Shown here piece by piece: positions 8,060-30,194 of a stretch of 30,194 nt of DNA (positions are counted from its first letter, which is position 1; each line of letters starts with the position of its first letter). The translations under genes were made by a program, and so were the position numbers. Source of the stretch: an uncultured Candidatus Saccharibacteria bacterium (GTDB lineage Bacteria; Patescibacteriota; Doudnabacteria; UBA920); NCBI GenBank assembly GCA_964407965.1, contig CAYOXN010000003.1:1-30194 (forward strand), given 5' to 3'. Below the pieces are notes generated by a model. That model saw only the letters and a list, made by a program, of their open reading frames with translations, had not been told where the DNA came from and did not search any database.

Positions 8060-9892
8060 TTACACGGCCTGTTTAAAAAATTCTTTATACCACTCAAAAG
8101 TTTCTCGAATACCCTCTTCAAACGAGTAGCGCGATTTCCAGCCCAACACGTTTACGGCTTTTTCGTAATTGAGGCTTTGGAAAGGAATTTCGTTTACCTG
8201 GTTATTGACTACGGAATACGGGCAATTACGGCCGGTAACCAAAGAGATTTTACTTATTAAATCCAGCACCGAAAAATTGTACCCGGTACTGAAGTTAAAC
8301 GCTTCCCCTTTTACCCGCTCTATGTTTTCGGCCAGCAAAATATACCCGTCTACCACATCTTTCACATACACATAGTCGCGGACAAACGTGCCGTCGCTGC
8401 GAATTTCCAGCTTGTCGTTAAGCATTTGGCTTTTCATAATGCCGGGGACAATGCGGTTTAAATTCAAGTCCCCCGGGCCATAAATGTTGCCGAAGCGCGA
8501 AACCGCAACCGGCAGGCGGTACGTGTTGTAATAAGCAGTGGCAATTAAATCGGCGCACGATTTGGAAACGTCATACGGATGGTCGCCGTCAAGCTTTTGG
8601 TCTTCTTTGGCATCCACACAGTCTTTGCCATAAGCTTTGTCACTGGAAGCCACAACTACCCCGCGGATATACGGGCTTTTACGGGCGGCCTCTAAAATAT
8701 TTACCGTACCCATAATGTTCGTTTCGTATGTCTCTTGGGGGTTTACAAAAGCGGTAGCAACTATGGGCTGCGCGGCCAAATGGAAAATGTATTGTATTTC
8801 ATACCTCGATACCACATCAAAAACCCGCTTGGCGTCATTTACGTCACAGTGGATGTTCACCACTTTGGCGTCGAGCCCTTGCTGGTAAAAATACGACTTG
8901 GGATTTTTGGAACGTATGGTACAAAACACGTTTGCCCCAAGGGTCACCAATTTTTCCACCAAATGCGAACCCACGAGCCCTGTCCCGCCTGTTACCAACA
9001 CATTCTTGCCGCGCAAATTGTTCGGCACTGCCGTGCCGGTAACCTCGGTATGCTGTGACAAAGAAGGCAGGCTCACTTCGGGCGCCTTGGGTATACTGGG
9101 CTGGTCCCATACTTTCCAAAACGGGTCGGTTTGCCAATGCTGGTTCATTTCCTCAACTTCCTTATAGGTATCCATAGCTTTCCATTTCCCCGTATGCTTA
9201 TACAGTGCAATCTGCCCTTGTTCCGTTAAAGGTAAAAACGTCTCTTCTATCATGCTGCCTGGCTTAATATGGTTAAAAATTTCGTTCTTAAAAACCATAA
9301 AGCCGCCGTTTATGACAAAGTTATAATGCTGGTCTGCATTCTGGGATTCACCCACCAAATTTTGCCTAAAGCCTTTTACCAGTCCCGAAAGTTCGTCGTG
9401 TTCCACTATGCCAAACTTGGTCAGCGGCCGGGCGCCGGTAATGGTCGCTATTTTCCCCTTCTCCTTGTGGAAACGGAGCAAGTCCAAAATGTTTATGTCA
9501 GCCACGCCGTCGCCATAGGTGAGCATAAAATCTTCGTCGCCCACATACGGCTTTATCTGTCGTACCCGTTCGCCGGTTAGGCTTTTAAGCCCGGTGTCTA
9601 CAAAAGTAATTTTAAAATCTTCGGTACCGTTATTATGTATCTGGACATGGTCGTCTTTGGTACTTAACGTAAAGTCATGGGTAAAAGTCCGGGCATTTAA
9701 AAAGTACTCTTTTATCATATTGCCCTTGTACCCGAGCGTCAAAATAAATTCATTAAACCCATAATGGGCATATATTTTCATGATATGCCAGAGTATAGGC
9801 TTGCCACCCACTTCCACCAGGGGCTTTGGCTTAAATTCGGTTTCTTCCTTCATGCGGGTGCCCTCACCGCCGCAAAGAATAACTACTTTCAT
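8060..9892 (-). CDS. Fusion: glucose-1-phosphate cytidylyltransferase (RfbF/DdhA-like) + CDP-glucose 4,6-dehydratase-like SDR (RfbG/DdhB-like)
   Basis: N-half: ILCGGEGTR, KPKPLVEVG, TYGDGVAD, INGGF, ends PFWKVW. C-half: VLVTGGTGLVG, HLAAQPIV, SSDKAYG, PYDVSK, RFGNIYGPGD. Confidence 0.85.
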   Translation of the reverse strand: MKVVILCGGEGTRMKEETEFKPKPLVEVGGKPILWHIMKIYAHYGFNEFILTLGYKGNMIKEYFLNARTFTHDFTLSTKDDHVQIHNNGTEDFKITFVDTGLKSLTGERVRQIKPYVGDEDFMLTYGDGVADINILDLLRFHKEKGKIATITGARPLTKFGIVEHDELSGLVKGFRQNLVGESQNADQHYNFVINGGFMVFKNEIFNHIKPGSMIEETFLPLTEQGQIALYKHTGKWKAMDTYKEVEEMNQHWQTDPFWKVWDQPSIPKAPEVSLPSLSQHTEVTGTAVPNNLRGKNVLVTGGTGLVGSHLVEKLVTLGANVFCTIRSKNPKSYFYQQGLDAKVVNIHCDVNDAKRVFDVVSRYEIQYIFHLAAQPIVATAFVNPQETYETNIMGTVNILEAARKSPYIRGVVVASSDKAYGKDCVDAKEDQKLDGDHPYDVSKSCADLIATAYYNTYRLPVAVSRFGNIYGPGDLNLNRIVPGIMKSQMLNDKLEIRSDGTFVRDYVYVKDVVDGYILLAENIERVKGEAFNFSTGYNFSVLDLISKISLVTGRNCPYSVVNNQVNEIPFQSLNYEKAVNVLGWKSRYSFEEGIRETFEWYKEFFKQAV

Positions 9893-16948: not shown

Positions 16949-17240
16949 ATATTTTGTAAATAGATTATCTTACAACAGTTTAGGCTATTGCGAGAGATTT
17001 CTGTAATTAATATCTAATTATTCTAATTACCCTAATTAACCTAAACAATGACTAATGTCCAAATGTAAAAAATTGTACCATAGCATGCTCCTGTGGAATT
17101 TTAGTCATTTAAGCATTGGGGTTTATTTAGACTAATTAGGTCAATTAGAAATTAGACATTCCCCAACTTCATACCTTTTACCACCTTTGACTAGCTGGTC
17201 TACGAACTGTGCATCTGTGGTTATCAGTGATCAGTGGATA

Positions 17241-20123: not shown

Positions 20124-20167
20124 CATCACACCAGGCTCACTACGGTGGGCCTGTTTTTTTATGCCAA
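20124..20167 (+). terminator. Rho-independent terminator, repeat copy A
   Basis: CAGGCTCAC-TACG-GTGGGCCTG-T7 (cUACGg tetraloop), within a 44-bp sequence repeated at 21113. Confidence 0.85.
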
Positions 20168-20237: not shown

Positions 20238-21101
20238 ATGAGTTTTTGTGACGGGGTTGTTGTAACGACCTTGCCCAACCTGGCAATATCTCGCCAGGTA
20301 AGTCCCGAGGCTTTTAAAGCACGTACTAACGTCGCGAAGGCCGCTATGATATCTGATATTAGCGCAGGCCACCGCCTAATTGCCCTATGTGAACGAAGTA
20401 TGCTGCCGCATTTCTCTGATGTATGCAACCGCATACACAATTGGGATGATGCGATGGCAGACAATGATTTTCAACGTAACAAGAAAGACCGTCGCGTCTT
20501 GTTCCTGGAAGACCCAGGCTCGGAAAACACTACCATGGGCCATGGTCGCCGCCTCATTATCGAACTTGCGACCCACATGTTCCCGCTTACTTTAGGGGAC
20601 GAAGATATTACACCGGTGATAATTTGGCGGGAGCCGGAGAAGGACATCGCAAAGTTCATCGGCGCAATCTGCGAACCGATCGTGAGTAACATTGCTGACA
20701 TTGTCATCCCCCGACGCAAGTCGCTGGCGAGCTACCCGAAATTTTCCCAAGCCTGGGAATCAACGGGAAGCATGATGGCAAGCTACATCATCGGCGGCGA
20801 ACCCCAGGACTACTGGGTTGGCCCGCGCGCTTTCCACCTGGCAGCTGCAAAATATTTCCTCAATTACCCTGGGGAACAGACGGATTTACCGGATTGGCAC
20901 GACTGCATTTTCGGACCTATTGTAGATGCAGTCGCTGACGGCAAGCGGGTGGCCGGGGTTGAAATCGATTTTGAATACCCGGAGGAACAACGGCTAGCCG
21001 AAGAGAATGACGGCGAGACAATGAAAAAGCGCATGCAAGTCATGCTCAAGCTGCTCGGGGCCATTGTTGCTCGCAAACAATGGCGCATGTCCCGGCAATA
21101 A
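20238..21101 (+). CDS. Hypothetical protein, possible divergent GT-A fold
   Basis: 287 aa; MGHGRR...VIIWREPEK...PIVSNIADIVIPRRKS resembles the GT2 core with EPE in place of DxD. Confidence 0.6.
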   Translation: MSFCDGVVVTTLPNLAISRQVSPEAFKARTNVAKAAMISDISAGHRLIALCERSMLPHFSDVCNRIHNWDDAMADNDFQRNKKDRRVLFLEDPGSENTTMGHGRRLIIELATHMFPLTLGDEDITPVIIWREPEKDIAKFIGAICEPIVSNIADIVIPRRKSLASYPKFSQAWESTGSMMASYIIGGEPQDYWVGPRAFHLAAAKYFLNYPGEQTDLPDWHDCIFGPIVDAVADGKRVAGVEIDFEYPEEQRLAEENDGETMKKRMQVMLKLLGAIVARKQWRMSRQ

Positions 21102-21112
21102 CGCCGGCACTC

Positions 21113-21157
21113 CATCATACCAGGCTCACTACGGTGGGCCTGTTTTTTTTATGCCAA
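21113..21157 (+). terminator. Rho-independent terminator, repeat copy B
   Basis: Identical stem-loop plus T8; overlaps the stop of the convergent minus-strand GT gene. Confidence 0.85.
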
Positions 21158-22216
21158 ATTTTCAAATATTTCTTTAAACCTTTTTTCGTACGTGTGTTCG
21201 GCAAGGGTTCTTTCGTAGCCTGCTTTGGCTATAGCTTGGCGCTCGCTTGCGTGGTTAAGGTAATATTTAGCTTTGGCTACCATGTCGTCCATGGTGTTAA
21301 AAACTACCACCTCTTTGCCTGGTTTAAGGTATTCGTCTAAGGGGTCGTCCGAAGGGCCGGTGAGTAAAAATCCGCCGCAGGCAGGCACTTCAAATGTGCG
21401 GGCTTTTATGGTCCGGCGCTGGGTACCGATAATAGATTTAAGATTTAAAATTGGAAAGTTTAAGTTTAAAGAATATTTTCCTAACTCTTTTTTAACAAAT
21501 AATTTGGCCAACAGGTTTAATTTTTTCTTAAAGCCAAAATACGGCGTTTCGGTAAAATTTAAGTTTATTTTGGAAAAAGAATAAATATTCAGCATTTCCT
21601 GTACGTCTGCGCCGCTTGTGTTGCCCCAGCCCCTACCTATGCCCTGGGCAGGCAAACCGGCTTTTACTAAAGCTTCAATGTAGTCCGGCCGGTTGCCGTA
21701 CTTTTGCCCGTAAAAAGTTATGTCATAGGTACCTTTGTTGAGCGCGGAATCTTGCGGCTTATACAAAAAATGGTTTACCGCCCATTGAGTTTTGAGCACA
21801 TTTTGTATGCCGGCCTTGTGGTATTCGCGGTACGCTTTGCCGTCTGTGGTGGAAACCAACGTAAATTCTTTGGCCCAGAATTGGGAATAAACATAAAAAC
21901 GCCAGTGGTCGTCGCCAAACCAGTTAAAAGTCTTGGTTTTGGTGTGCTGGGTTATGTGCCGTATGGTTTCTTTTTTTATTTCCTCGGTGAACAAAAAGCA
22001 AAACAACACGTCCGGCTGCCAAGCCCCCACGGCTTCTATGAGCATTTCGTTCATGCGGTCGCGGCCGTGTTCGCGCATAATTTCGTCAAAGCCAAAATGC
22101 CGGACCTCTATGCCCGGCATGTGCTGGAGCGTATGTAAAAAATGCTTGCATTCAAACGACTGCCCAGCCTCCGGCTTACCATATTCATTTTTTAGGGCAC
22201 AAAAAAGTACTTTCAT
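21149..22216 (-). CDS. CgeB-like glycosyltransferase (Glyco_trans_1_2 family)
   Basis: PDVLF, NWFGDDHWRF, SKINLNF, RTFEVPACGGFLLT, HTYEKRF. ATG 22216 preferred over GTG 22234. Confidence 0.85.
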   Translation of the reverse strand: MKVLFCALKNEYGKPEAGQSFECKHFLHTLQHMPGIEVRHFGFDEIMREHGRDRMNEMLIEAVGAWQPDVLFCFLFTEEIKKETIRHITQHTKTKTFNWFGDDHWRFYVYSQFWAKEFTLVSTTDGKAYREYHKAGIQNVLKTQWAVNHFLYKPQDSALNKGTYDITFYGQKYGNRPDYIEALVKAGLPAQGIGRGWGNTSGADVQEMLNIYSFSKINLNFTETPYFGFKKKLNLLAKLFVKKELGKYSLNLNFPILNLKSIIGTQRRTIKARTFEVPACGGFLLTGPSDDPLDEYLKPGKEVVVFNTMDDMVAKAKYYLNHASERQAIAKAGYERTLAEHTYEKRFKEIFENLA

Positions 22217-22308
22217 ATTTATTTCCCAAATCACAAATTATCACGAATGCACAGTTTATTTATCAATGCTTAATTAAAGTGAATTACGAAACTAGCTAAT
22301 ACCACTAT

Positions 22309-22405
22309 GTGTCATTGCGAGTGCATCCGAAGCAATCTACCCTATAGGCTTATTTGAGAGATTGCTACGTAGACAGATAAAGCCCTTTTCTCCTCGCAAT
22401 GACAC
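22309..22405. repeat. Nested palindromic intergenic element (GTCATTGCGAG...CTCGCAATGAC type, RPE-like)
   Basis: 13-bp terminal IR GTGTCATTGCGAG / CTCGCAATGACAC; inner IR AGCAATCT (22331) / AGATTGCT (22359). Confidence 0.75.
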
Positions 22406-22477
22406 TTTAGTTATTCAAAGTGATTTGATTATTTTGATACACAATCTGTGTATCTGTGATATCAGCGATCTGTGGAC

Positions 22478-23260
22478 CTAAACCGAGAAGTCTAAAATCA
22501 TCGGCAAATGGTCCGAAACCTCGTTATACGGTACCTCAAAATTTTTCACTTGCACATCTGGGCTCACAAAAGTATAATCGGCAAAATACTGTTTGCTGTT
22601 AAATTTCCGCCACGAAACTTCATTGCGCGTGTTGGTAATCTTGTATTCTTTAATCAAGTTGCGTAGCTTAGCGTCTAGCATCCCAATGCTTTGGGTATCG
22701 GGGTATAAGTTAAAATCCCCACACAATACGGTTGGGGCCGGCGGCAAAGTAGCCAATACGTCTAGCAGGCGTTGTGACTGCACAATGCGCTCGGGCGTAT
22801 CTATTTTTGTGCCTGGCCGCGACATGCCGTGAAAATTCAACACGTGTAAATTCTTGCCTTTGTCCTCTATGCCTAGTGCCTGCAATACCACATACCCTTC
22901 CTCGGGACTCGTTCCGGGCACTTCTCGGGTATCAAATAAATTATACGAAGCATACGATTGTACTGGAATGGATTTTTTTACAAATACCGCCTTGCCAAAA
23001 CTTACTGGCCATGGTGCGGGCTTGTCCACTTCAAAACCCATGCTTGATGCCGCATAATAGCAATTATACTCTGGCATCATTGCTTGCAACTCATGCAACA
23101 CATGCAAACGGGCCCCTGAACTCAATTCTGGGGCATTACTTTCGGCATTAAATATTTCTTGCAGGCAAAATATTTCTGTTTCGGGTTTTAATTCTTTTAA
23201 GTACTCAAATAACGGTTCCCCCTGGGTAGCGCTCCAAATATTAAACGACACCAATTTCAT
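22478..23260 (-). CDS. Endonuclease/exonuclease/phosphatase (EEP) family protein
   Basis: SFNIW, CLQEI, NFHG, CGDFN, DYTFVS, SDHLPM. ATG 23260 has an AAGGGAG RBS. Confidence 0.9.
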   Translation of the reverse strand: MKLVSFNIWSATQGEPLFEYLKELKPETEIFCLQEIFNAESNAPELSSGARLHVLHELQAMMPEYNCYYAASSMGFEVDKPAPWPVSFGKAVFVKKSIPVQSYASYNLFDTREVPGTSPEEGYVVLQALGIEDKGKNLHVLNFHGMSRPGTKIDTPERIVQSQRLLDVLATLPPAPTVLCGDFNLYPDTQSIGMLDAKLRNLIKEYKITNTRNEVSWRKFNSKQYFADYTFVSPDVQVKNFEVPYNEVSDHLPMILDFSV

Positions 23261-23344
23261 GTAACTCCCTTTCAAATATTATCTTTTCTTAACGCTATCA
23301 TAAAAAACCTTTCCTATCAATAAATAATCCTATACAATATCCAT

Positions 23345-24475
23345 ATGGACCAAACACCGTTAAAAATCCTCTATATTATCACCCAAGCCGACGGGGGTGG
23401 GGCCCAAAATTATGTTTTGGCCTTAGCTAGTGCTTTCCAAGGCCGCGTAGCGGCAGGCACCGAAGCCGAACGCTTATTTGCCCAAGCCAAGGAACGGGGA
23501 CTTCTTACCTTCCCGCTCAAATACCTCAAGCGCAGCATTAACCCCCTTTTTGACCTGTTGGCTGTTTGGGAAATATGGCAGCTGGTACGGGACATTCGGC
23601 CGGCCATAGTCCATGTTAATTCCACCAAAGCAGGCGTACTGGGCAGCATTGCGGCAAAACTTGCCAGAGCCAAAGTTGTTTATACCGCCCACGGCTTTGT
23701 GTTTAACGAACCCCTGTCTTCGGCCGTGAAAGGCTTTTACATAATTGCGGAAAAATTCGCTTCATACTTTCGTGACCACATTATAACCGTGTCTGAACAA
23801 GACAGGCTCTCTGCCTTGCAGCACAACCTAGCCCCCGAAGAAAAACTAACAACGGTGTACAATGGCTTGCCGCCCATAGAATTTTTAGAACGCCAGCAAG
23901 CGCGTATGGCTTTGGGCATGGCTGACGGCAGTTTGTATTTGGGAACTATTGCCAACCTCTATGCCACCAAAGGCCTCGACACTTACTTACACGCCCTTAA
24001 AGAAGTTAAAAACATGTTTTTAGATACCCGGGCCATTATATTTGGCCAAGGCCCGGAAAAACAACATTTGGACACGTTAATTAATGAGCTAGGGCTTAAA
24101 GACACAGTGGAAATTGTTTCCGGCGTACCCGATGCGGCCAAATACTTAAAGGCTTTTGATATTTTTGTCATGCCTTCCCGCAAAGAAGGCTTCCCCTTTG
24201 CCATTTTAGCAGCCATGCAGGCAGGCCTGCCTATTGTTGCCACTAACGTAGGCGGCATACCCGAAGCCTTAGAAGGTGCCGGGCTCCTGGTCCCGCCCGA
24301 AAACCCCAGCGCCCTTTCCACCCAAATTACCAGCTTGCTGCTGGAATACAAAATGCAAAACGGCTCCAGCAAACTGCAGGAACTTTCCCAAAAAGCCCTT
24401 ACCCGCAGCCAATATTTCATCCAAGAAAAAATGCTCTCCGAAACCTCTGCTATTTACCAAAAGCTCCCCCTGTAA
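23345..24475 (+). CDS. Glycosyltransferase family 4 (GT-B)
   Basis: ITQADGGGAQ, HVNSTKAG, YTAHG, FVMPSRKEGFP, AAMQAGLPIVATNVGGIPE. Confidence 0.92.
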   Translation: MDQTPLKILYIITQADGGGAQNYVLALASAFQGRVAAGTEAERLFAQAKERGLLTFPLKYLKRSINPLFDLLAVWEIWQLVRDIRPAIVHVNSTKAGVLGSIAAKLARAKVVYTAHGFVFNEPLSSAVKGFYIIAEKFASYFRDHIITVSEQDRLSALQHNLAPEEKLTTVYNGLPPIEFLERQQARMALGMADGSLYLGTIANLYATKGLDTYLHALKEVKNMFLDTRAIIFGQGPEKQHLDTLINELGLKDTVEIVSGVPDAAKYLKAFDIFVMPSRKEGFPFAILAAMQAGLPIVATNVGGIPEALEGAGLLVPPENPSALSTQITSLLLEYKMQNGSSKLQELSQKALTRSQYFIQEKMLSETSAIYQKLPL

Positions 24476-24491
24476 ACACCTATGTATATTC

Positions 24492-24525
24492 TTAAAAGGC
24501 TCACACTACTATGTGGGCCTTTTAA
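24492..24525. terminator. Probable bidirectional terminator between convergent genes
   Basis: TTAAAAGGCTCACA-N6-TGTGGGCCTTTTAA stem; shares the GGCTCAC/GTGGGCC core with the 20132 and 21121 terminators. Confidence 0.6.
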
Positions 24526-24558
24526 AATTTTTCATTACTTTCCTATTTTCACAAACCC

Positions 24559-24602
24559 AATTCTTAGCATTTTTTCACATATGTGAAAAAATGCTAAGAA
24601 TT
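24559..24602. repeat. Perfect palindrome, copy 4 (44 bp)
   Basis: AATTCTTAGCATTTTTTCACATATGTGAAAAAATGCTAAGAATT; overlaps the stop codon of the PaaX-like gene. Confidence 0.97.
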
Positions 24603-25263
24603 AAAGGACGTGTAATTTTTTAAAATGTTTTTTTAAAACTTTTTCATCTTCCAAATCCATACGGCTTATTTCCATTACCGTCACAAAACGCTCAATGTGG
24701 AAATGCTTCGTTAAAAACTCCATTTCTTCCCGGGGATCATAAGGATAAAACCATAAGCTGCGCTGCAAAGGGAATAAATGCATTTGCTTTACCTTAAGAC
24801 GAAAAAGATCGGCTGCTCCCCTATATTCCTTAGTGGGGATATCAGCGGCAATTTGCCACCACTTTTTATCCCATTTTTTTGCTTTAGGAATTTTTAAAGT
24901 CTGAAAAGTAAGCGTTTTATGGACTTTATTGCCTTTTTTAGTCAACCTAACCCAAATGCTGCCATCTTTTTTTTCCTTAAAAGAAATATACCCTCTTCGT
25001 TTTAAATAATAAAACACCCGACTAGTTTCTTCAACCCGCTGGCTCCTTGTACGATACTTAGATTTAAACCTTGATATTTTTCCCAAAGCTGAAAATAAAT
25101 TTGGAGCCACCAAAGTTATGGAAACAAAACCAGCTACTCCAATTATAGCCAATGTAACTAAAGAAACTTTTTTTAAAACTGCCAAGTCTTGGGAATCTAT
25201 TTCCCACACTCCCTTCTTTGGCAATACTTGGTTAATATGACTTTTTATTTTATTGTATTTCAT
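24601..25263 (-). CDS. PaaX-like protein: winged helix + central Cas2-like domain (CPR-type, no PaaX C-terminal domain)
   Basis: YYLKRRGYI...VRLTKKG (wHTH wing), then WDKKWWQIAADIP...FRLKVKQMHLFPLQRSLWFYPYD (PaaX central Cas2-like pattern WDgxW...DIP...LQxS.W). ATG 25263 preferred over TTG 25272. Confidence 0.8.
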   Translation of the reverse strand: MKYNKIKSHINQVLPKKGVWEIDSQDLAVLKKVSLVTLAIIGVAGFVSITLVAPNLFSALGKISRFKSKYRTRSQRVEETSRVFYYLKRRGYISFKEKKDGSIWVRLTKKGNKVHKTLTFQTLKIPKAKKWDKKWWQIAADIPTKEYRGAADLFRLKVKQMHLFPLQRSLWFYPYDPREEMEFLTKHFHIERFVTVMEISRMDLEDEKVLKKHFKKLHVL

Positions 25264-25270
25264 ACATCCC

Positions 25271-25314
25271 AATTCTTAGCATTTTTTCACATATGTGAAA
25301 AAATGCTAAGAATT
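25271..25314. repeat. Perfect palindrome, copy 5 (44 bp)
   Basis: Identical to copy 4; 7 nt upstream of ATG 25263. Confidence 0.97.
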
Positions 25315-25344
25315 CCTATTTTTTATTTTACACAGTAATTATTC

Positions 25345-28125
25345 TCAATACCCCCAAACCAAGTCACCTTTTTGGGTTGAGACTTTGAGCAGGATAAGGC
25401 CGGAGAGGGTCTTTTTTATTTTGCCGGTTTGGTCTTTGCCCACGAGCGTGGTTTTGCCTAAGGCATAGAAGCCTAAAATATCAAAATCTTTATTGGATTT
25501 AACTTGCTGGGTCAAGAGAAGTACGTTGCCTTTCTTATCAAAAAGCCAGTCAAAATGCAGTTGGGCTTTGCTTAAATTGGCAGCTATGCCATTGTAGGTT
25601 AATGACTTTATGTCTGCGCTTAGGTTTCTTTTTCTGTCCTTACCTTGGAAGGTTAAAACCGTAACATTGCCGGCAGAGTCGGTGGCGGGTATGGTATCAT
25701 TTTTATCGGATATTTTTGGATGTTTATACTTAAGTTGTTTGGTTGTAGGTGTGGATGTTAAAACGGTAGCCAACGTGTCGGTAGCAGTAAAAACCAAATC
25801 TTGGTCCTTTGGGCTAAACTGCATTATTAATTCCGGAGCTGTGGCATCTATTACAAATTCCAAGGTTTTAGGCTCTTCATTGTTGCCTGCTTTGTCGGTG
25901 GCAAAAAAAGTTAAGGTGTGCAGGCCTTCTGCTGTTACCGTAAGGGAAGTGGGGTACGTTGTCGTGGTGGTTGTAGCTTGGCCATTCAGACTGTAGGAAA
26001 TACCCAAAACCCCGGAAGCAGCCTCAGGATTATTCTGGTCTTGGCTATCTTCGGCAAACAAAGTTAGTTTGACGCTACTTCGGTAAAAACCAGGTTCACC
26101 CATAAGGCCGGTAAGTGTTGAGGTGGAAACGGGGGCTAGGACATCTTGGGCTTGTTCGGCATTCAATATCGCAGAAGGGGTTACAGCTTTGTCTACCGAG
26201 CCATCACCATTTGTATCTAATAATAAATTTGTATTACCTCCTGGTTGTTCCTGTACCGTAGCTACGAGTTTGGTTGTTACTGGGAGATTGCTAAAAACCC
26301 TAGCCTCAGCAGATTGACTGTCGTTTATATCTTGGCTAATAAACGTAAAAGTACCCGTAGCTGTACCTTTAAGCTGGATGTTAAAGTCGCCTTCTTCGGG
26401 TAAATACATGAACTTATGGTCACCAAAAACGTCCAAGCTGGCATTGGGGATACTATTGTAGGTGCTGCCGTCTTCGGCTATGCCTAGGCTATTGCCTTGA
26501 TTATCGGTAACTTGGAAATTAATGGGACTATAAATGGCATAGGCTTTACCGTTAAGTTTGCATTGGGCAATGTCTTGGGTAATAACACTTCCCACCGGAA
26601 GACTAGATCCAGTTAGAATATTGGTAATCTGCTCCTTTATACCGTCTTGGCTCATCATGCTAGAATGGTCCGCATTTAAAGCATAATATTTCTTACCCTG
26701 GTCCACCGGCACATTGGTAGCACTTTCCAAAGGCACGGTACCGTCCCCTGGTGCATAAATGGGTTTTTTGTAATTGATTATATTTCTCTTTAGTATATCT
26801 TCGTGTTGTTCTTCATTTATTTGCACAATACTCCCCTCTTTACAACCTACTAAATTGTATATATCTACCCCTGCGGTCCTTAAGTCATAATTATCAAATT
26901 CCGAAGAATGAATTTGCTGGGCGTTGTCTAGGGCGGTAGTATTTATTAATCCCAAAGCGTTTAAATGTGCCCACGAGTCTTCAAAGTTTAATTCTTGATT
27001 AGTGTCGTTTAGTGGGTGAAAGAAACTGGAATGTGTAATATGGTAAAAACTACCTTTCTTATCAAAATATGTTTGAGATGGGGCAAGGTCATACACTACA
27101 GGCAGGTTTTTGGAGAGTTTTTTCATTTCTCCGTCGGCAAGCCAAGGTATTTTGAAACCATCTCCTACTGTTAATACTTTTATGGCTTTAGGTGCTCCTG
27201 TATTAGGTACCCCCACAAATACGGCTTTGTCTATATGGTGGGAGGTTGGATTATCCATTACATACTTCTTAACTAAAAGACCGCCCGTACTGTGGGCAAT
27301 AACGTTTACTTTGCCCGCATTACGACCGGCCTCGGTCTGGTTTAAGATATATTCTATTTGTCCTTTTAAATGGTCTATATTGGTCGTACCATCCGGCTCC
27401 TTCCCACTCACCCCATACCGCCAGTCATATGGGAAAGTAAACAAATCCGTACCTTCAGTATACCCTTGAGCCGTAAGCGTGGTTAGAAGTCCTAATGTGT
27501 AATCAAAAATTATTTTTCTACCTCTGATTACCCCGCCAACTTTGATGGATTGGTTATCAGAACTTAAATCAGCTTTAAAACTTAGAACATCCATAAAATC
27601 ATCTCCAAAATCTCCCGCCATTCTATCTAAATTTAACCATATTGTTTCATTACCTAAAAGCAAATCAGAACCCGTTACACCGGGAATAATAAGTATAGGG
27701 GTTTTACTAACCTTTTTTGTTACATTAAGATCACAAGTAACATTATTATAAGGACTGGTCAAAAATCCTAAACTAGGTTCCATTTTATAAAAATAAAAAG
27801 CTGGGTCTGTACCGACACAACTTGTACTATCTAAGTCCCAAGACCAACCATTAGTATCTTGCATTTCTATAAAGTAACTCGCTCCTAGGCCAGCAGGTGC
27901 ATTATAAACTATTTGACCGTGTTGAGATACAGTTGTTACAGCCTTATTTTGATTAAAAAATCTGGAAGGATTGTACCCTGAAAAATTAAAAGTGAGAGTA
28001 TCATCGGAACCAGTAGACAGAGTAATGTTTAAAGTTAAATTCACATAAGGAGCTATCATGATGGCTCGTACCACTGAAGGTAACAAAAAACCCATCACTA
28101 ATAGAATTATAAATACGTTTTTCAT
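25345..28125 (-). CDS. Secreted alpha/beta-hydrolase (LCAT/phospholipase A2 group XV-like) with C-terminal beta-rich/Ig-like domains
   Basis: Signal-peptide-like N-terminus; PILIIPGVTGS, FPYDWR, IAHSTGG nucleophile elbow, GVPNTGAPKA, GDGTVP, DHSSM; C-terminal EGLHTLTFFATDKAGNNE repeat-type motif. Confidence 0.8.
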   Translation of the reverse strand: MKNVFIILLVMGFLLPSVVRAIMIAPYVNLTLNITLSTGSDDTLTFNFSGYNPSRFFNQNKAVTTVSQHGQIVYNAPAGLGASYFIEMQDTNGWSWDLDSTSCVGTDPAFYFYKMEPSLGFLTSPYNNVTCDLNVTKKVSKTPILIIPGVTGSDLLLGNETIWLNLDRMAGDFGDDFMDVLSFKADLSSDNQSIKVGGVIRGRKIIFDYTLGLLTTLTAQGYTEGTDLFTFPYDWRYGVSGKEPDGTTNIDHLKGQIEYILNQTEAGRNAGKVNVIAHSTGGLLVKKYVMDNPTSHHIDKAVFVGVPNTGAPKAIKVLTVGDGFKIPWLADGEMKKLSKNLPVVYDLAPSQTYFDKKGSFYHITHSSFFHPLNDTNQELNFEDSWAHLNALGLINTTALDNAQQIHSSEFDNYDLRTAGVDIYNLVGCKEGSIVQINEEQHEDILKRNIINYKKPIYAPGDGTVPLESATNVPVDQGKKYYALNADHSSMMSQDGIKEQITNILTGSSLPVGSVITQDIAQCKLNGKAYAIYSPINFQVTDNQGNSLGIAEDGSTYNSIPNASLDVFGDHKFMYLPEEGDFNIQLKGTATGTFTFISQDINDSQSAEARVFSNLPVTTKLVATVQEQPGGNTNLLLDTNGDGSVDKAVTPSAILNAEQAQDVLAPVSTSTLTGLMGEPGFYRSSVKLTLFAEDSQDQNNPEAASGVLGISYSLNGQATTTTTTYPTSLTVTAEGLHTLTFFATDKAGNNEEPKTLEFVIDATAPELIMQFSPKDQDLVFTATDTLATVLTSTPTTKQLKYKHPKISDKNDTIPATDSAGNVTVLTFQGKDRKRNLSADIKSLTYNGIAANLSKAQLHFDWLFDKKGNVLLLTQQVKSNKDFDILGFYALGKTTLVGKDQTGKIKKTLSGLILLKVSTQKGDLVWGY

Positions 28126-28129
28126 AAAT

Positions 28130-28477
28130 TTAAAACCCTATACCATGGCGGAATGAATAAATTACGTACATTGCCAAAAATATAGCTAAGGATATCAAAG
28201 AAAAAATAATGCTTAAAATCAACAACCACCTTCGATAATTTCGGTTGATATAAGTAAAATAAACAATACTTAAAGCTCCTAATAACTGGACCAATAAAAC
28301 TACCAGCCAACTTACTGTACTTTTTCCTGTGGTTAAGAAATTCTCCCTAAACACTGGGCTGTCAATTTGTGAATTATATAGACTCTGCATCAAATTAACC
28401 AAAGGACTCCACAATATTTCAGGTATTATAAACATTCCCAAACCTACCCATAGCCATATTTTTTGTAATTTTGTCAT
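28130..28477 (-). CDS. Small membrane protein (about 3 TM), hypothetical
   Basis: 115 aa hydrophobic ORF; stop 4 nt before the lipase ATG. Confidence 0.75.
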   Translation of the reverse strand: MTKLQKIWLWVGLGMFIIPEILWSPLVNLMQSLYNSQIDSPVFRENFLTTGKSTVSWLVVLLVQLLGALSIVYFTYINRNYRRWLLILSIIFSLISLAIFLAMYVIYSFRHGIGF

Positions 28478-28505
28478 TTGTTTCTAAAAGTTAATATTTG
28501 CCTTA

Positions 28506-28533
28506 AATATAACACTTTTTCCTTAGTTGTCAA
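28506..28533 (-). promoter_or_regulatory. Putative sigma70 promoter
   Basis: TTGACA-N16-TATATT, 28 nt upstream of ATG 28477. Confidence 0.55.
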
Positions 28534-28567
28534 ATTGTAAATTTATTTGGTATACAATGAACCAAAA

Positions 28568-28601
28568 TTAGCATTTTTTCACATATGTGAAAAAATGCTA
28601 A
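28568..28601. repeat. Perfect palindrome, copy 6 (34 bp, TTAGC-arm type)
   Basis: TTAGCATTTTTTCACATATGTGAAAAAATGCTAA; the right flank continues GAATTAAA as in copy 4, while the left flank has diverged. Confidence 0.97.
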
Positions 28602-28638
28602 GAATTAAATAACAAAAATTTTTACAGTGCAATTATAG

Positions 28639-29511
28639 TTAGTGGGTGTATATGACATTAAAATACCCGGTGGTGTTGTCGGGTATGCCGGTAAAGTCGT
28701 ATGAGTTTGCGTGGTCCAAATATCCTAGCTGGGCTTTTTGTGCTTGGACAAATGCCAAGGTAAACGCCAAACTGGCTGGGGAATCTACTTGTTCAAGCTG
28801 TATGACCCCGGTTTCCATACTCTTTAACTGCTTTTCGGTGCGTGCGTCTATACCATTTGCTTTTTGCACGTTTTGGTAATGTGAAAAATCGGTGCTGCAT
28901 ATAACCACCGCATTTGGGAAAAGCCTAGCCAACTCCCGCGCGAGTGTGGCTGCATCGGATTGGGAAGCTGCGGAACTGAACAAAACCGGGACTAGGGTTG
29001 AATTGGGGAAATATGTTTTTATAAACGTTGCTTGCACCCCAATTGAATGTTCGTTTTTAAAACAACCATCCTCTTCGTTTACCCCCAACGCGACTATATT
29101 TTCGGCAAGCCCGAGGTCGTTCTTCAACTCCCCTGCTGGGGTTACAAAGTTTTTTTTAGTGGTGGTTACTTTAGCACTACATTGTTCAAAATGGTCAGGA
29201 CCCACGACTACAAAGGTGCCTATGTCGGGGTTTTGCTGTTTAAGTTTGGAATACATTTCGTGTATAAACTTTTCGGCTGTGGGCAAATGATGCGAGGTAA
29301 TGGCAGCCACCGGCCGGCCCGGCGTAGAACCCGCGGTTTTAATTTCAGGCATGTGCAGGGTGTGGGCAGAATAGTCTATAAACTGGGAGACGGGCTGGCT
29401 CTCCACCAGGGGTTGTGGTTTATTCGTATACCCATGCCAAAACCGCGATCCGGTCAAAAGGATCGCGATTAGCGCTATAAGTATGGCAACACCCTTTACT
29501 AGCTTGGACAT
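28639..29511 (-). CDS. MEMO1-family (AmmeMemoRadiSam system protein B-like) protein with N-terminal membrane anchor
   Basis: ITSHHL, VVGPDHF, NEHSIGVQ..FIK, STDFSHY; hydrophobic N-terminus. Confidence 0.85.
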   Translation of the reverse strand: MSKLVKGVAILIALIAILLTGSRFWHGYTNKPQPLVESQPVSQFIDYSAHTLHMPEIKTAGSTPGRPVAAITSHHLPTAEKFIHEMYSKLKQQNPDIGTFVVVGPDHFEQCSAKVTTTKKNFVTPAGELKNDLGLAENIVALGVNEEDGCFKNEHSIGVQATFIKTYFPNSTLVPVLFSSAASQSDAATLARELARLFPNAVVICSTDFSHYQNVQKANGIDARTEKQLKSMETGVIQLEQVDSPASLAFTLAFVQAQKAQLGYLDHANSYDFTGIPDNTTGYFNVIYTH

Positions 29512-29517
29512 ACGGGA

Positions 29518-30194
29518 TTATTTTTGGGGCAAGACAATGGGTTTACCTGAATTACTCGGAGGCACAATTCTTATGTCCTGGCTTTCACTTACATTTAAAC
29601 TGTCGTAATTTACCAACGACTGGATAAGGCTGGGGTTGGCATTAAATTCTCCCTTACTGGCGGCTCGGGCATAATACTCAATGGTATTAACCGGACACAA
29701 ACTGGAAGAATTAGCGTTATGGTAGGCTGAGAAATATACGACATTGCCTTCCACTGCCAGCGGGAACCCGCGTTGGGTACACCGTGCCCAATTATACGTC
29801 AACCCGCGCTGCCACAAATATGAAATGGGTTTCAAGCCGCTCGGCAAATAGTCCACAACTTGGTATCCGCCGTCTATGGCATTTGCATTCATGGTAAATT
29901 CCAACCTCACCAGTACCGTGGAACCCTCTTCAAAAGTAGTCACCTGCCTGCCGTTTACCCAATAGGTACGCTTAACCGAAAGGTCAGTGTTTTTTGCCAA
30001 CGCATTCGGGTCTTTATACTCATTTAACACCGCTATGGCGACGGGCTTGCCTTGAATGCCGCTAAACGTTATGGAATGTAACTCGTCGGCATAAAACCTC
30101 AGCGTGGTTGAACGGCCGCGTTCCAAAGTAACTTTGTTGGTTTTGCCATTTACCTCGTAAGTGAACTCCGCAGATTCGGTATTTAACCTGCCTA
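29518..30194 (-). CDS. C-terminus of a bacterial alpha-2-macroglobulin-like protein (MG10-like domain); 5' truncated
   Basis: Frame is open to the window edge (GRLNTESAEF...); LSVKRTY, VLVRLEF, VVDYLPSGLKP, IEYYARAASKGEF.A.P. Confidence 0.75.
   Translation of the reverse strand, partial: GRLNTESAEFTYEVNGKTNKVTLERGRSTTLRFYADELHSITFSGIQGKPVAIAVLNEYKDPNALAKNTDLSVKRTYWVNGRQVTTFEEGSTVLVRLEFTMNANAIDGGYQVVDYLPSGLKPISYLWQRGLTYNWARCTQRGFPLAVEGNVVYFSAYHNANSSSLCPVNTIEYYARAASKGEFNANPSLIQSLVNYDSLNVSESQDIRIVPPSNSGKPIVLPQK

Follow-up and report, generated by a model that had tools for sequence, protein, structure and literature searches.

What is a small PaaX-like gene doing between two copies of a long perfect palindrome, and is the palindrome its partner? 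The question is raised by a locus in a stretch of 30,194 nucleotides (the window) from an uncultured Candidatus Saccharibacteria bacterium of the Doudnabacteria lineage; the window is the entire contig C3 of a genome (G000) assembled to 1.12 Mb in 135 contigs at 95% completeness, and positions elsewhere are given as genome:contig:coordinates. The gene, here named mini-PaaX, and the palindrome are very probably a cognate pair; the gene product most likely acts as a self-controlling regulator, with sites that share some properties with spreading repeats.

The gene occupies 24601-25263 on the minus strand and encodes 220 amino acids, from an ATG at 25263-25261, which agrees with the starts of its homologs (consensus MxYxxI), to a TAA stop codon at 24603-24601; its GC content is 35% against a mean of 46.5% for the genes of the genome. 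An earlier note, made from the sequence alone, had described an exact direct repeat of 47 bp around this PaaX-like gene, and the repeat was confirmed at both positions: the string occurs exactly twice on the plus strand, at 24556-24602 (the 3' copy) and 25268-25314 (the 5' copy), at a spacing of 712 nt and with zero occurrences expected from 100 shuffles. Each copy consists of CCC and a 44-nt perfect palindrome made of two 22-nt arms without a loop (24559-24602 and 25271-25314). The 3' copy shares 2 nt with the stop codon and is placed between convergent genes, and 4 nt separate the 5' copy from the ATG (7 nt when the palindrome proper is counted); the overlap with the stop codon and the 4-nt gap had both been described before. 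The additional statement that these are the longest copies holds within the window, but the genome contains equal or longer ones, of 50 nt on contig C37 and 46 nt on contig C18.

The encoded protein (P0001) has a single Pfam match, to PaaX_M (PF20803, "central Cas2-like domain"; E 4.9e-10; score 39.8 bits, cut-off 24), located at residues 129-207 behind a winged helix that extends to about residue 123. The composition proposed earlier, a PaaX-type winged helix plus a Cas2-like domain, is supported by Pfam for the second part; the winged helix is seen at the fold level only, and the Pfam model of the PaaX N-terminus (PF07848) does not match even at E <= 1. An AlphaFold2 model built from 38 homologs has a mean predicted local distance difference test score of 83, and its top Foldseek match over the whole model is E. 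coli PaaX (8a39; E 4e-5, 217 columns), with further matches to a Jannaschia PaaX-like protein (3l09) and, on the C-terminal half, to Cas2 (5zyf). Residues 25-123 superpose on the winged helices of MarR, PadR, and HxlR with Z scores of 9-10, some of these structures having been solved with operator DNA; this DNA-binding fold favors a regulator. The WDxKW motif at the junction of the winged helix and the Cas2 fold aligns between P0001 and PaaX. The hydrophobic N-terminal segment (residues 33-60, approximately) resembles a transmembrane helix in its hydropathy (2.47 over the 19 residues 35-53); in the model and the superposition, the hydrophobic N-terminal helices form H1-S1-H2 of the winged helix.

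Within the Cas2-like domain, Asp141 of the motif ADIP is invariant in the 38 homologs, as are W131, Q167, W171, and P174. P0001 itself gives no match to the Pfam Cas2 model (PF09827); a paralog on contig C106 passes the cut-off of that model (27.2 bits versus 23.8; profile positions 2-49 on residues 102-154), and the match range would put its equivalent of D141 at about profile position 8, which we take to be the site of the conserved beta1 Asp of Cas2. The earlier equation of the ADIP aspartate with the metal-binding aspartate of Cas2 is consistent with these data, the correspondence being one of match range and not of residue-level alignment.

Despite its fold, mini-PaaX appears to be neither a PaaX in the functional sense nor a CRISPR Cas2. 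PaaX, the phenylacetyl-CoA-responsive repressor of E. coli and Pseudomonas, likewise places a winged helix before a Cas2-fold domain (8a39, 3l09), but its solved chains have 305-316 residues, whereas mini-PaaX has about 220 and ends after PaaX_M. The C-terminal domain PaaX_C (PF08223) was not found anywhere in the genome, nor were PaaA and PaaC; the absence of paa catabolic genes from the window, pointed out earlier, was borne out as well in the 20 open reading frames scanned of the roughly 27 there (they have sugar or surface functions or are unknowns, and none is paa-like). Unlike PaaX, moreover, mini-PaaX belongs to a multi-paralog family, each gene with a private long flanking palindrome. 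Cas2 shares the ferredoxin-like fold (5zyf), and the C106 paralog even exceeds the Cas2 cut-off, but in mini-PaaX the fold is fused to a winged helix, Cas1 was not found in the genome, and the repeat scan of the window, which has no Rfam match of any kind, revealed no CRISPR-like array. The dimeric repressors of the MarR and PadR type offer another likeness in their winged helix, in their palindromic sites, and in the position of one site over the gene's own promoter region; the dimerization module of mini-PaaX would, however, be the Cas2 fold instead of a helical one, and its sites are perfect palindromes of 34-50 bp, one at each gene end. The family is large, with 5,932 clusters at 50% identity (E <= 0.001) or 3,251 at 1e-10, and its named homologs belong mainly to Candidatus Doudnabacteria and other Patescibacteria. 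The source records leave its members unnamed or label them hypothetical, "Cas2" or "PaaX", of which the "Cas2" label is misleading; an exact look-up of the P0001 protein on public contigs returned no match.

The pairing of protein and palindrome can be read from the paralogs and relatives of mini-PaaX. The genome encodes five PaaX_M paralogs, all above the PF20803 cut-off and at most 53% identical to one another, and four of the five have, on both sides, palindromes of a family peculiar to the gene, with further members scattered over the genome; this arrangement favors a set of specific regulators. The flanking core is CACATATGTG for the gene of the window (C3), GTTCGCAATTGCGAAC for the paralog on C17, TTCTATTTACGGCCGTAAATAGAA for that on C106, and ATCCCGTTCGGCCGAACGGGAT for that on C2. 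An unbiased scan of 853 genes, in which the same 14-mer had to occur no more than 130 nt from either gene end, retrieved 24 genes with a repeat of at least 14 nt at both flanks, these same four paralogs among them (Fisher p = 2.4e-6). Across 41 genomes (40 relatives and G000), the family is present in 26, with 0 to 9 matches per genome; at the thresholds used, 19 loci of the long subfamily in other genomes comprise 10 with matched palindromes on both sides, 5 with one, and 4 with none, and the palindromes of the short subfamily tend to be ACGGCCGT-centred. The co-variation that the earlier note had suggested looking for, each homolog beside a dispersed palindrome of its own, is therefore found in most of the paralogs and in about half of these 19 relatives. 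Ortholog pairs between G000 and its sister species (G001) retain the same palindrome core, and it is for these pairs only that the protein tree resolves a co-phylogeny of protein and core, its deeper branches being poorly resolved.

The 16-nt center of the P0001 palindrome is equally restricted: 15 copies in G000, 6 in G001, 2 in G006, 1 in G013, and none in the rest of the 41 genomes. G001 and G006 hold the closest orthologs of P0001 (67% and 51% identity, respectively). Palindromes without the gene, which the earlier note regarded as contrary evidence, amount to the one solo copy in G013 (G013:C10:22386-22401, locus L048, with arms CTGTCAATT...AATTGACAG), a genome in which the P0001 query found no homolog; every other copy belongs to a genome that encodes P0001 or one of its closest orthologs.

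Within G000, the core TTTTTTCACATATGTGAAAAAA is present in 15 copies, 6 of them on the contig of the window. All 15 are intergenic according to rough gene calls, and coding sequence makes up 80% of the genome; the 22-nt core is unchanged in 13 copies and differs by 1 or 2 bases in the other two, and the central 16 nt are exact in every copy and across two species. The centers are themselves palindromic and loop-less, as fits double-stranded sites for a dimer. Intergenic placement, an exact center, and the fit to dimer sites all speak for a DNA-binding regulator. Outside the core, the arms fall into the classes TTAGCA, ATATAA, GTATCT, TTATCA, and GTATAA, each of which is mirrored exactly on the opposite arm.

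Several of these sites appear to be old. Positions 21685-30188 of the window align collinearly with one contig of G001, the mini-PaaX unit is syntenic, and for each of the six core copies in that species G000 has a copy at the corresponding place despite a DNA identity of about 70-80%, which again favors functional sites. At orthologous sites the arms have changed in matched fashion, for example TTAGCA...TGCTAA in one species and TTATCA...TGATAA in the other; the sites are therefore long-lived, and their symmetry has been maintained. The copy at 28568-28601 (TTAGCA class) keeps its position in the sister species and lies 35 nt upstream of a strong promoter-like site of a gene for a 115-residue membrane protein. 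Conservation in the sister species does not extend to the left accessory zone of the window (about 550-4177); of the copies there, those at 1729-1770 (ATATAA class) and 3183-3222 (TTAGCA class) each stand between a terminator-like hairpin and a promoter-like site, and that at 4043-4082 (ATATAA class) marks the edge of the zone.

The bracket layout is not special to the mini-PaaX family, being common to a true REPtron, that is, a unit of repetitive extragenic palindromic (REP) sequences and REP-associated tyrosine transposase (RAYT), and to two classes of helix-turn-helix genes. The canonical RAYT of the genome (G000:C30:6698-7369; 223 residues, HUH motif NHFHF, motif YIHQNP, PF01797 at E 1e-10) has GAAGGGCATC-type REPs on both sides (unit G000:C30:6661-7398), with about 10 copies in the genome; Y1 proteins were found on contigs C30 and C84 only, and P0001 has PaaX_M only. 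Two TrpR-family (PF01371) helix-turn-helix genes of about 175 residues are each bracketed by a long palindrome of their own with dispersed copies (G000:C8:15868-16510, AATACTCCAATACT type; G000:C31:1497-2146, CTTTGATACTACGT type). These genes share the layout without a nuclease-like domain, and its generality among regulators favors a regulatory role; for two shorter TrpR paralogs, on C94 and C28, the palindrome list shows no matching long palindrome in the vicinity.

What the palindrome might do for the gene depends on where transcription starts, and all promoter sites considered here are consensus matches, not measurements. The earlier note had argued that the 5' repeat leaves no room for a promoter; this holds for the interval between repeat and ATG, but promoter-like hexamers occur inside the palindrome and just upstream of it. 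Within the 5' palindrome, TTCACA-16-AAGAAT can be read on both strands, the second hexamer ending 8 nt before the ATG. Just upstream, on the minus strand at 25320-25348, TTGAGA (25348-25343) is followed after 17 nt by TAAAAA (25325-25320), with a predicted start at about the first base of the palindrome; this candidate was read from the sequence and was not returned by a stricter scan. From either candidate promoter it follows that a protein on the 5' copy would sit on the promoter or right after it. A promoter built into the palindrome is a possibility that fits the P0001 gene and the C106 paralog; neither the sister species nor the other paralogs share this feature. Strong promoter-like sites follow four other copies in the window at a distance of 20-43 nt, and the centers of these copies are about 74, 85, 95, and 97 bp before the predicted starts. 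On the far side of the gene, a symmetric terminator-like hairpin with A and T runs (24492-24525) could end the convergent transcripts of a GT4 gene and of mini-PaaX. Contigs from RNA libraries cover 24800-25042, a part of the mini-PaaX gene, which is no proof of transcription. As a separate observation, an AT-rich motif of the TAATTACCC / CTAAACGCTACC type recurs just upstream of promoter-like sites (window 17015-17041 and 25336-25353, G000:C86:512-554, and about 15 other contigs), and several ribosomal-protein and small genes were seen in the gene-bracket scan to be bracketed by such non-palindromic repeats.

The most economical mechanism, which we place just on the probable side, is autoregulation by a palindrome-binding dimer that also has a small number of additional sites. 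Mini-PaaX, composed of a winged helix and a Cas2 fold without PaaX_C, would bind as a dimer to the invariant 22-24-bp center of the duplex palindrome and, when bound at the 5' copy, would shut off its own gene; negative autoregulation is proposed because the putative promoter of that gene is overlapped or immediately followed by the 5' copy. The 3' copy over the stop codon may contribute, through a loop with the 5' copy or as a block to transcription from the convergent side, and the other 13 copies would be further sites of mini-PaaX at the borders of accessory genes, those in the window being about 74-97 bp upstream of the predicted starts of strong promoters. Since each paralog has its own palindrome, the family would provide the cell with a number of separate, private channels of regulation. 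Both the long perfect symmetry and the matched arm changes are most readily accounted for by template-switch correction inside a palindrome or by hairpin selection, in addition to protein binding.

Several points weigh against the autoregulator. Binding and regulation by mini-PaaX are themselves predictions drawn from sequence and a structural model; the core is much more uniform than the usual operator sets; the variation of the arms is always symmetric, which protein binding alone does not explain; the 3' copy, between convergent genes, has no obvious promoter under its control; and the invariant Cas2-type aspartate is not required by dimerization alone. For several CGGCCG-centred palindrome classes the assembly contains no partner gene, and clusters of 3-4 different palindromes with this center occur at distances of 50-130 nt (G000:C86:56-443; G000:C28:6864-6983 and 9474-9595, both C28 clusters between convergent genes). 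The numbers of core copies given above leave nine extra ones in G000 relative to its congener, and the copy on C18 is not matched at the corresponding locus of the sister species, where synteny breaks directly after a terminator. Furthermore, a 42-nt palindrome of the C2 class is inserted in frame within a LigT/2H-phosphoesterase-like gene (G000:C11:11681-11722), five orthologs of which lack about 9-10 residues at the insertion point.

Much of this evidence counts toward a selfish partnership of the REP/RAYT kind, in which mini-PaaX would recognize the repeats through its winged helix and would copy, maintain or protect them through a Cas2-fold nuclease or strand-handling activity, so that gene and repeats persist. 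The likeness to a REPtron is close: a gene bracketed by its own palindrome, dispersed intergenic copies, different repeats for different paralogs, and a layout identical to that of the RAYT/REP unit on C30. Symmetric arm changes are expected of hairpin intermediates, the mixed clusters between convergent genes resemble bacterial interspersed mosaic elements (BIMEs), and the in-frame C2-class copy, the copy numbers that differ between congeners, the copies at synteny breaks, the invariant aspartate at the Cas2 catalytic position, and the patchy paralog count can be added. The protein, however, is not an HUH/Y1 transposase (PF01797) and has no other known transposase or recombinase domain, paralogs with so little identity give no sign of recent gene transposition, and the unit and several solo copies hold their positions between species. 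At the same time, the palindromes are perfect, loop-less and low in copy number (4-15 per class), their centers fit duplex dimer sites and not hairpin loops, and the TrpR-family genes exhibit the same layout with no nuclease-like domain. Such a partnership appears unlikely, though it deserves serious consideration; a bolder version is slightly less likely still, in which mini-PaaX is the active partner of an HUH-independent REP system, its winged helix guiding a Cas2-fold nuclease to the private palindrome for copying, homogenizing or spreading, even in frame into genes, as a self-perpetuating system that exists alongside RAYT/REP and is widespread in ultra-small bacteria. The Rickettsia palindromic elements (RPEs) also insert palindromic repeats in frame into genes, as in the LigT-like gene; here, by comparison, there is a single in-frame case in G000, and it belongs to the C2 class, not to the P0001 palindrome. 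The earlier note had left the choice between an autoregulated repressor and a REP/RAYT-like unit open; the cognate pairing common to both is supported, and each mechanism finds evidence in its favor, the one in long-lived functional sites and the other in repeat-like spread.

Two further explanations are far less probable than either of these. In one, which we regard as very unlikely, the unit is a recombination cassette, a circle of the gene and one palindrome that integrated at a chromosomal palindrome and could be excised as 712 bp in the manner of integron cassettes or dif modules. The direct repeat is indeed identical at 47 of 47 positions including its 3 non-palindromic bases, palindromes border segments that differ between congeners as well as single-gene units with their own terminator and promoter, and G013 has a solo core although the P0001 query detected no homolog there. 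However, the flanking copies of the other paralogs differ in their outer arms and are not simple duplicates, the sister species carries the unit at the equivalent locus, and no integrase adjoins any unit, the single tyrosine recombinase of the genome lying on contig C44; the sites, moreover, are perfect palindromes and not of the imperfect attC type. The 712-bp circle that the earlier note had envisaged gained no support, no deletion or circle joint being seen in four runs, which is weak evidence from assembled contigs that break at palindromes. About as improbable is an element acting at the RNA level, in which the palindromes would be transcribed as 20-bp stem-loops at messenger RNA ends and would affect stability, processing or termination, the protein being a binder of RNA hairpins or a ribonuclease related to Cas2 and VapD. 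Relatives of Cas2 and VapD can cut RNA, the 5' region is predicted to fold as RNA into a 20-bp hairpin (-26 kcal/mol, z = -9.2), the arm changes are compensatory, a perfect palindrome gives the same hairpin from either transcribed strand, and copies are present at both transcript ends. Yet the central 4 nt are always self-complementary, which a loop does not need, the AT-rich stems mostly lack a proper U tract and stand alongside separate GC-rich terminators, no Rfam family matches, and the nearest structural matches of the protein are DNA-binding regulators. An autoregulator with dispersed sites remains the preferred mechanism.

Other features of the window and genome were recorded beside these subjects. 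The clusters on C86 and C28 were considered as copies of one longer element, which was rejected, the individual palindromes alone being recurrent; a palindrome-like stretch in queA on contig C52 was likewise rejected as an insertion, as it belongs to the gene itself and encodes a conserved YGRKK motif. An ORF-free (lacking open reading frames), GC-rich stretch of about 560 nt at G000:C18:7516-8103 lies between two 26-nt palindromes of the TCCCTTCGGGAGATCTCCCGTAGGGA type, which has 6 copies in the genome; it was examined as a candidate for RNase P RNA and has no Rfam match even at E 0.1. In the window, a 37-nt terminator-like hairpin occurs at 20124-20160 and 21113-21149 with 97% identity and brackets a plus-strand gene for 287 residues (20238-21101). 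This gene and two in the left zone beside palindromes (1849-3060 and 3277-3948) have a GC content of 51-55%, compared with 46.5%, and poor codon-usage scores; these two properties suggest that the three genes were acquired.

Mini-PaaX and its private palindrome constitute an undescribed partnership of protein and repeat, and a literature search found no published description of such a pairing. To our knowledge, the ultra-small bacteria of the Candidate Phyla Radiation (CPR) have few recognized regulators and almost no experimental genetics. Each member of this family has an unusually clear predicted DNA partner, and a specificity code between protein and palindrome might therefore be readable from genomes and testable in vitro without culturing. 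If the proteins are regulators, they are probably one of the main transcription-factor families of CPR bacteria and would be a source of orthogonal protein-operator pairs. If, instead, they spread their palindromes, they would represent a new type of repeat-propagating system built on the Cas2 fold, relevant to the question of where Cas2 came from and to the appearance of in-frame palindromic inserts in genes.
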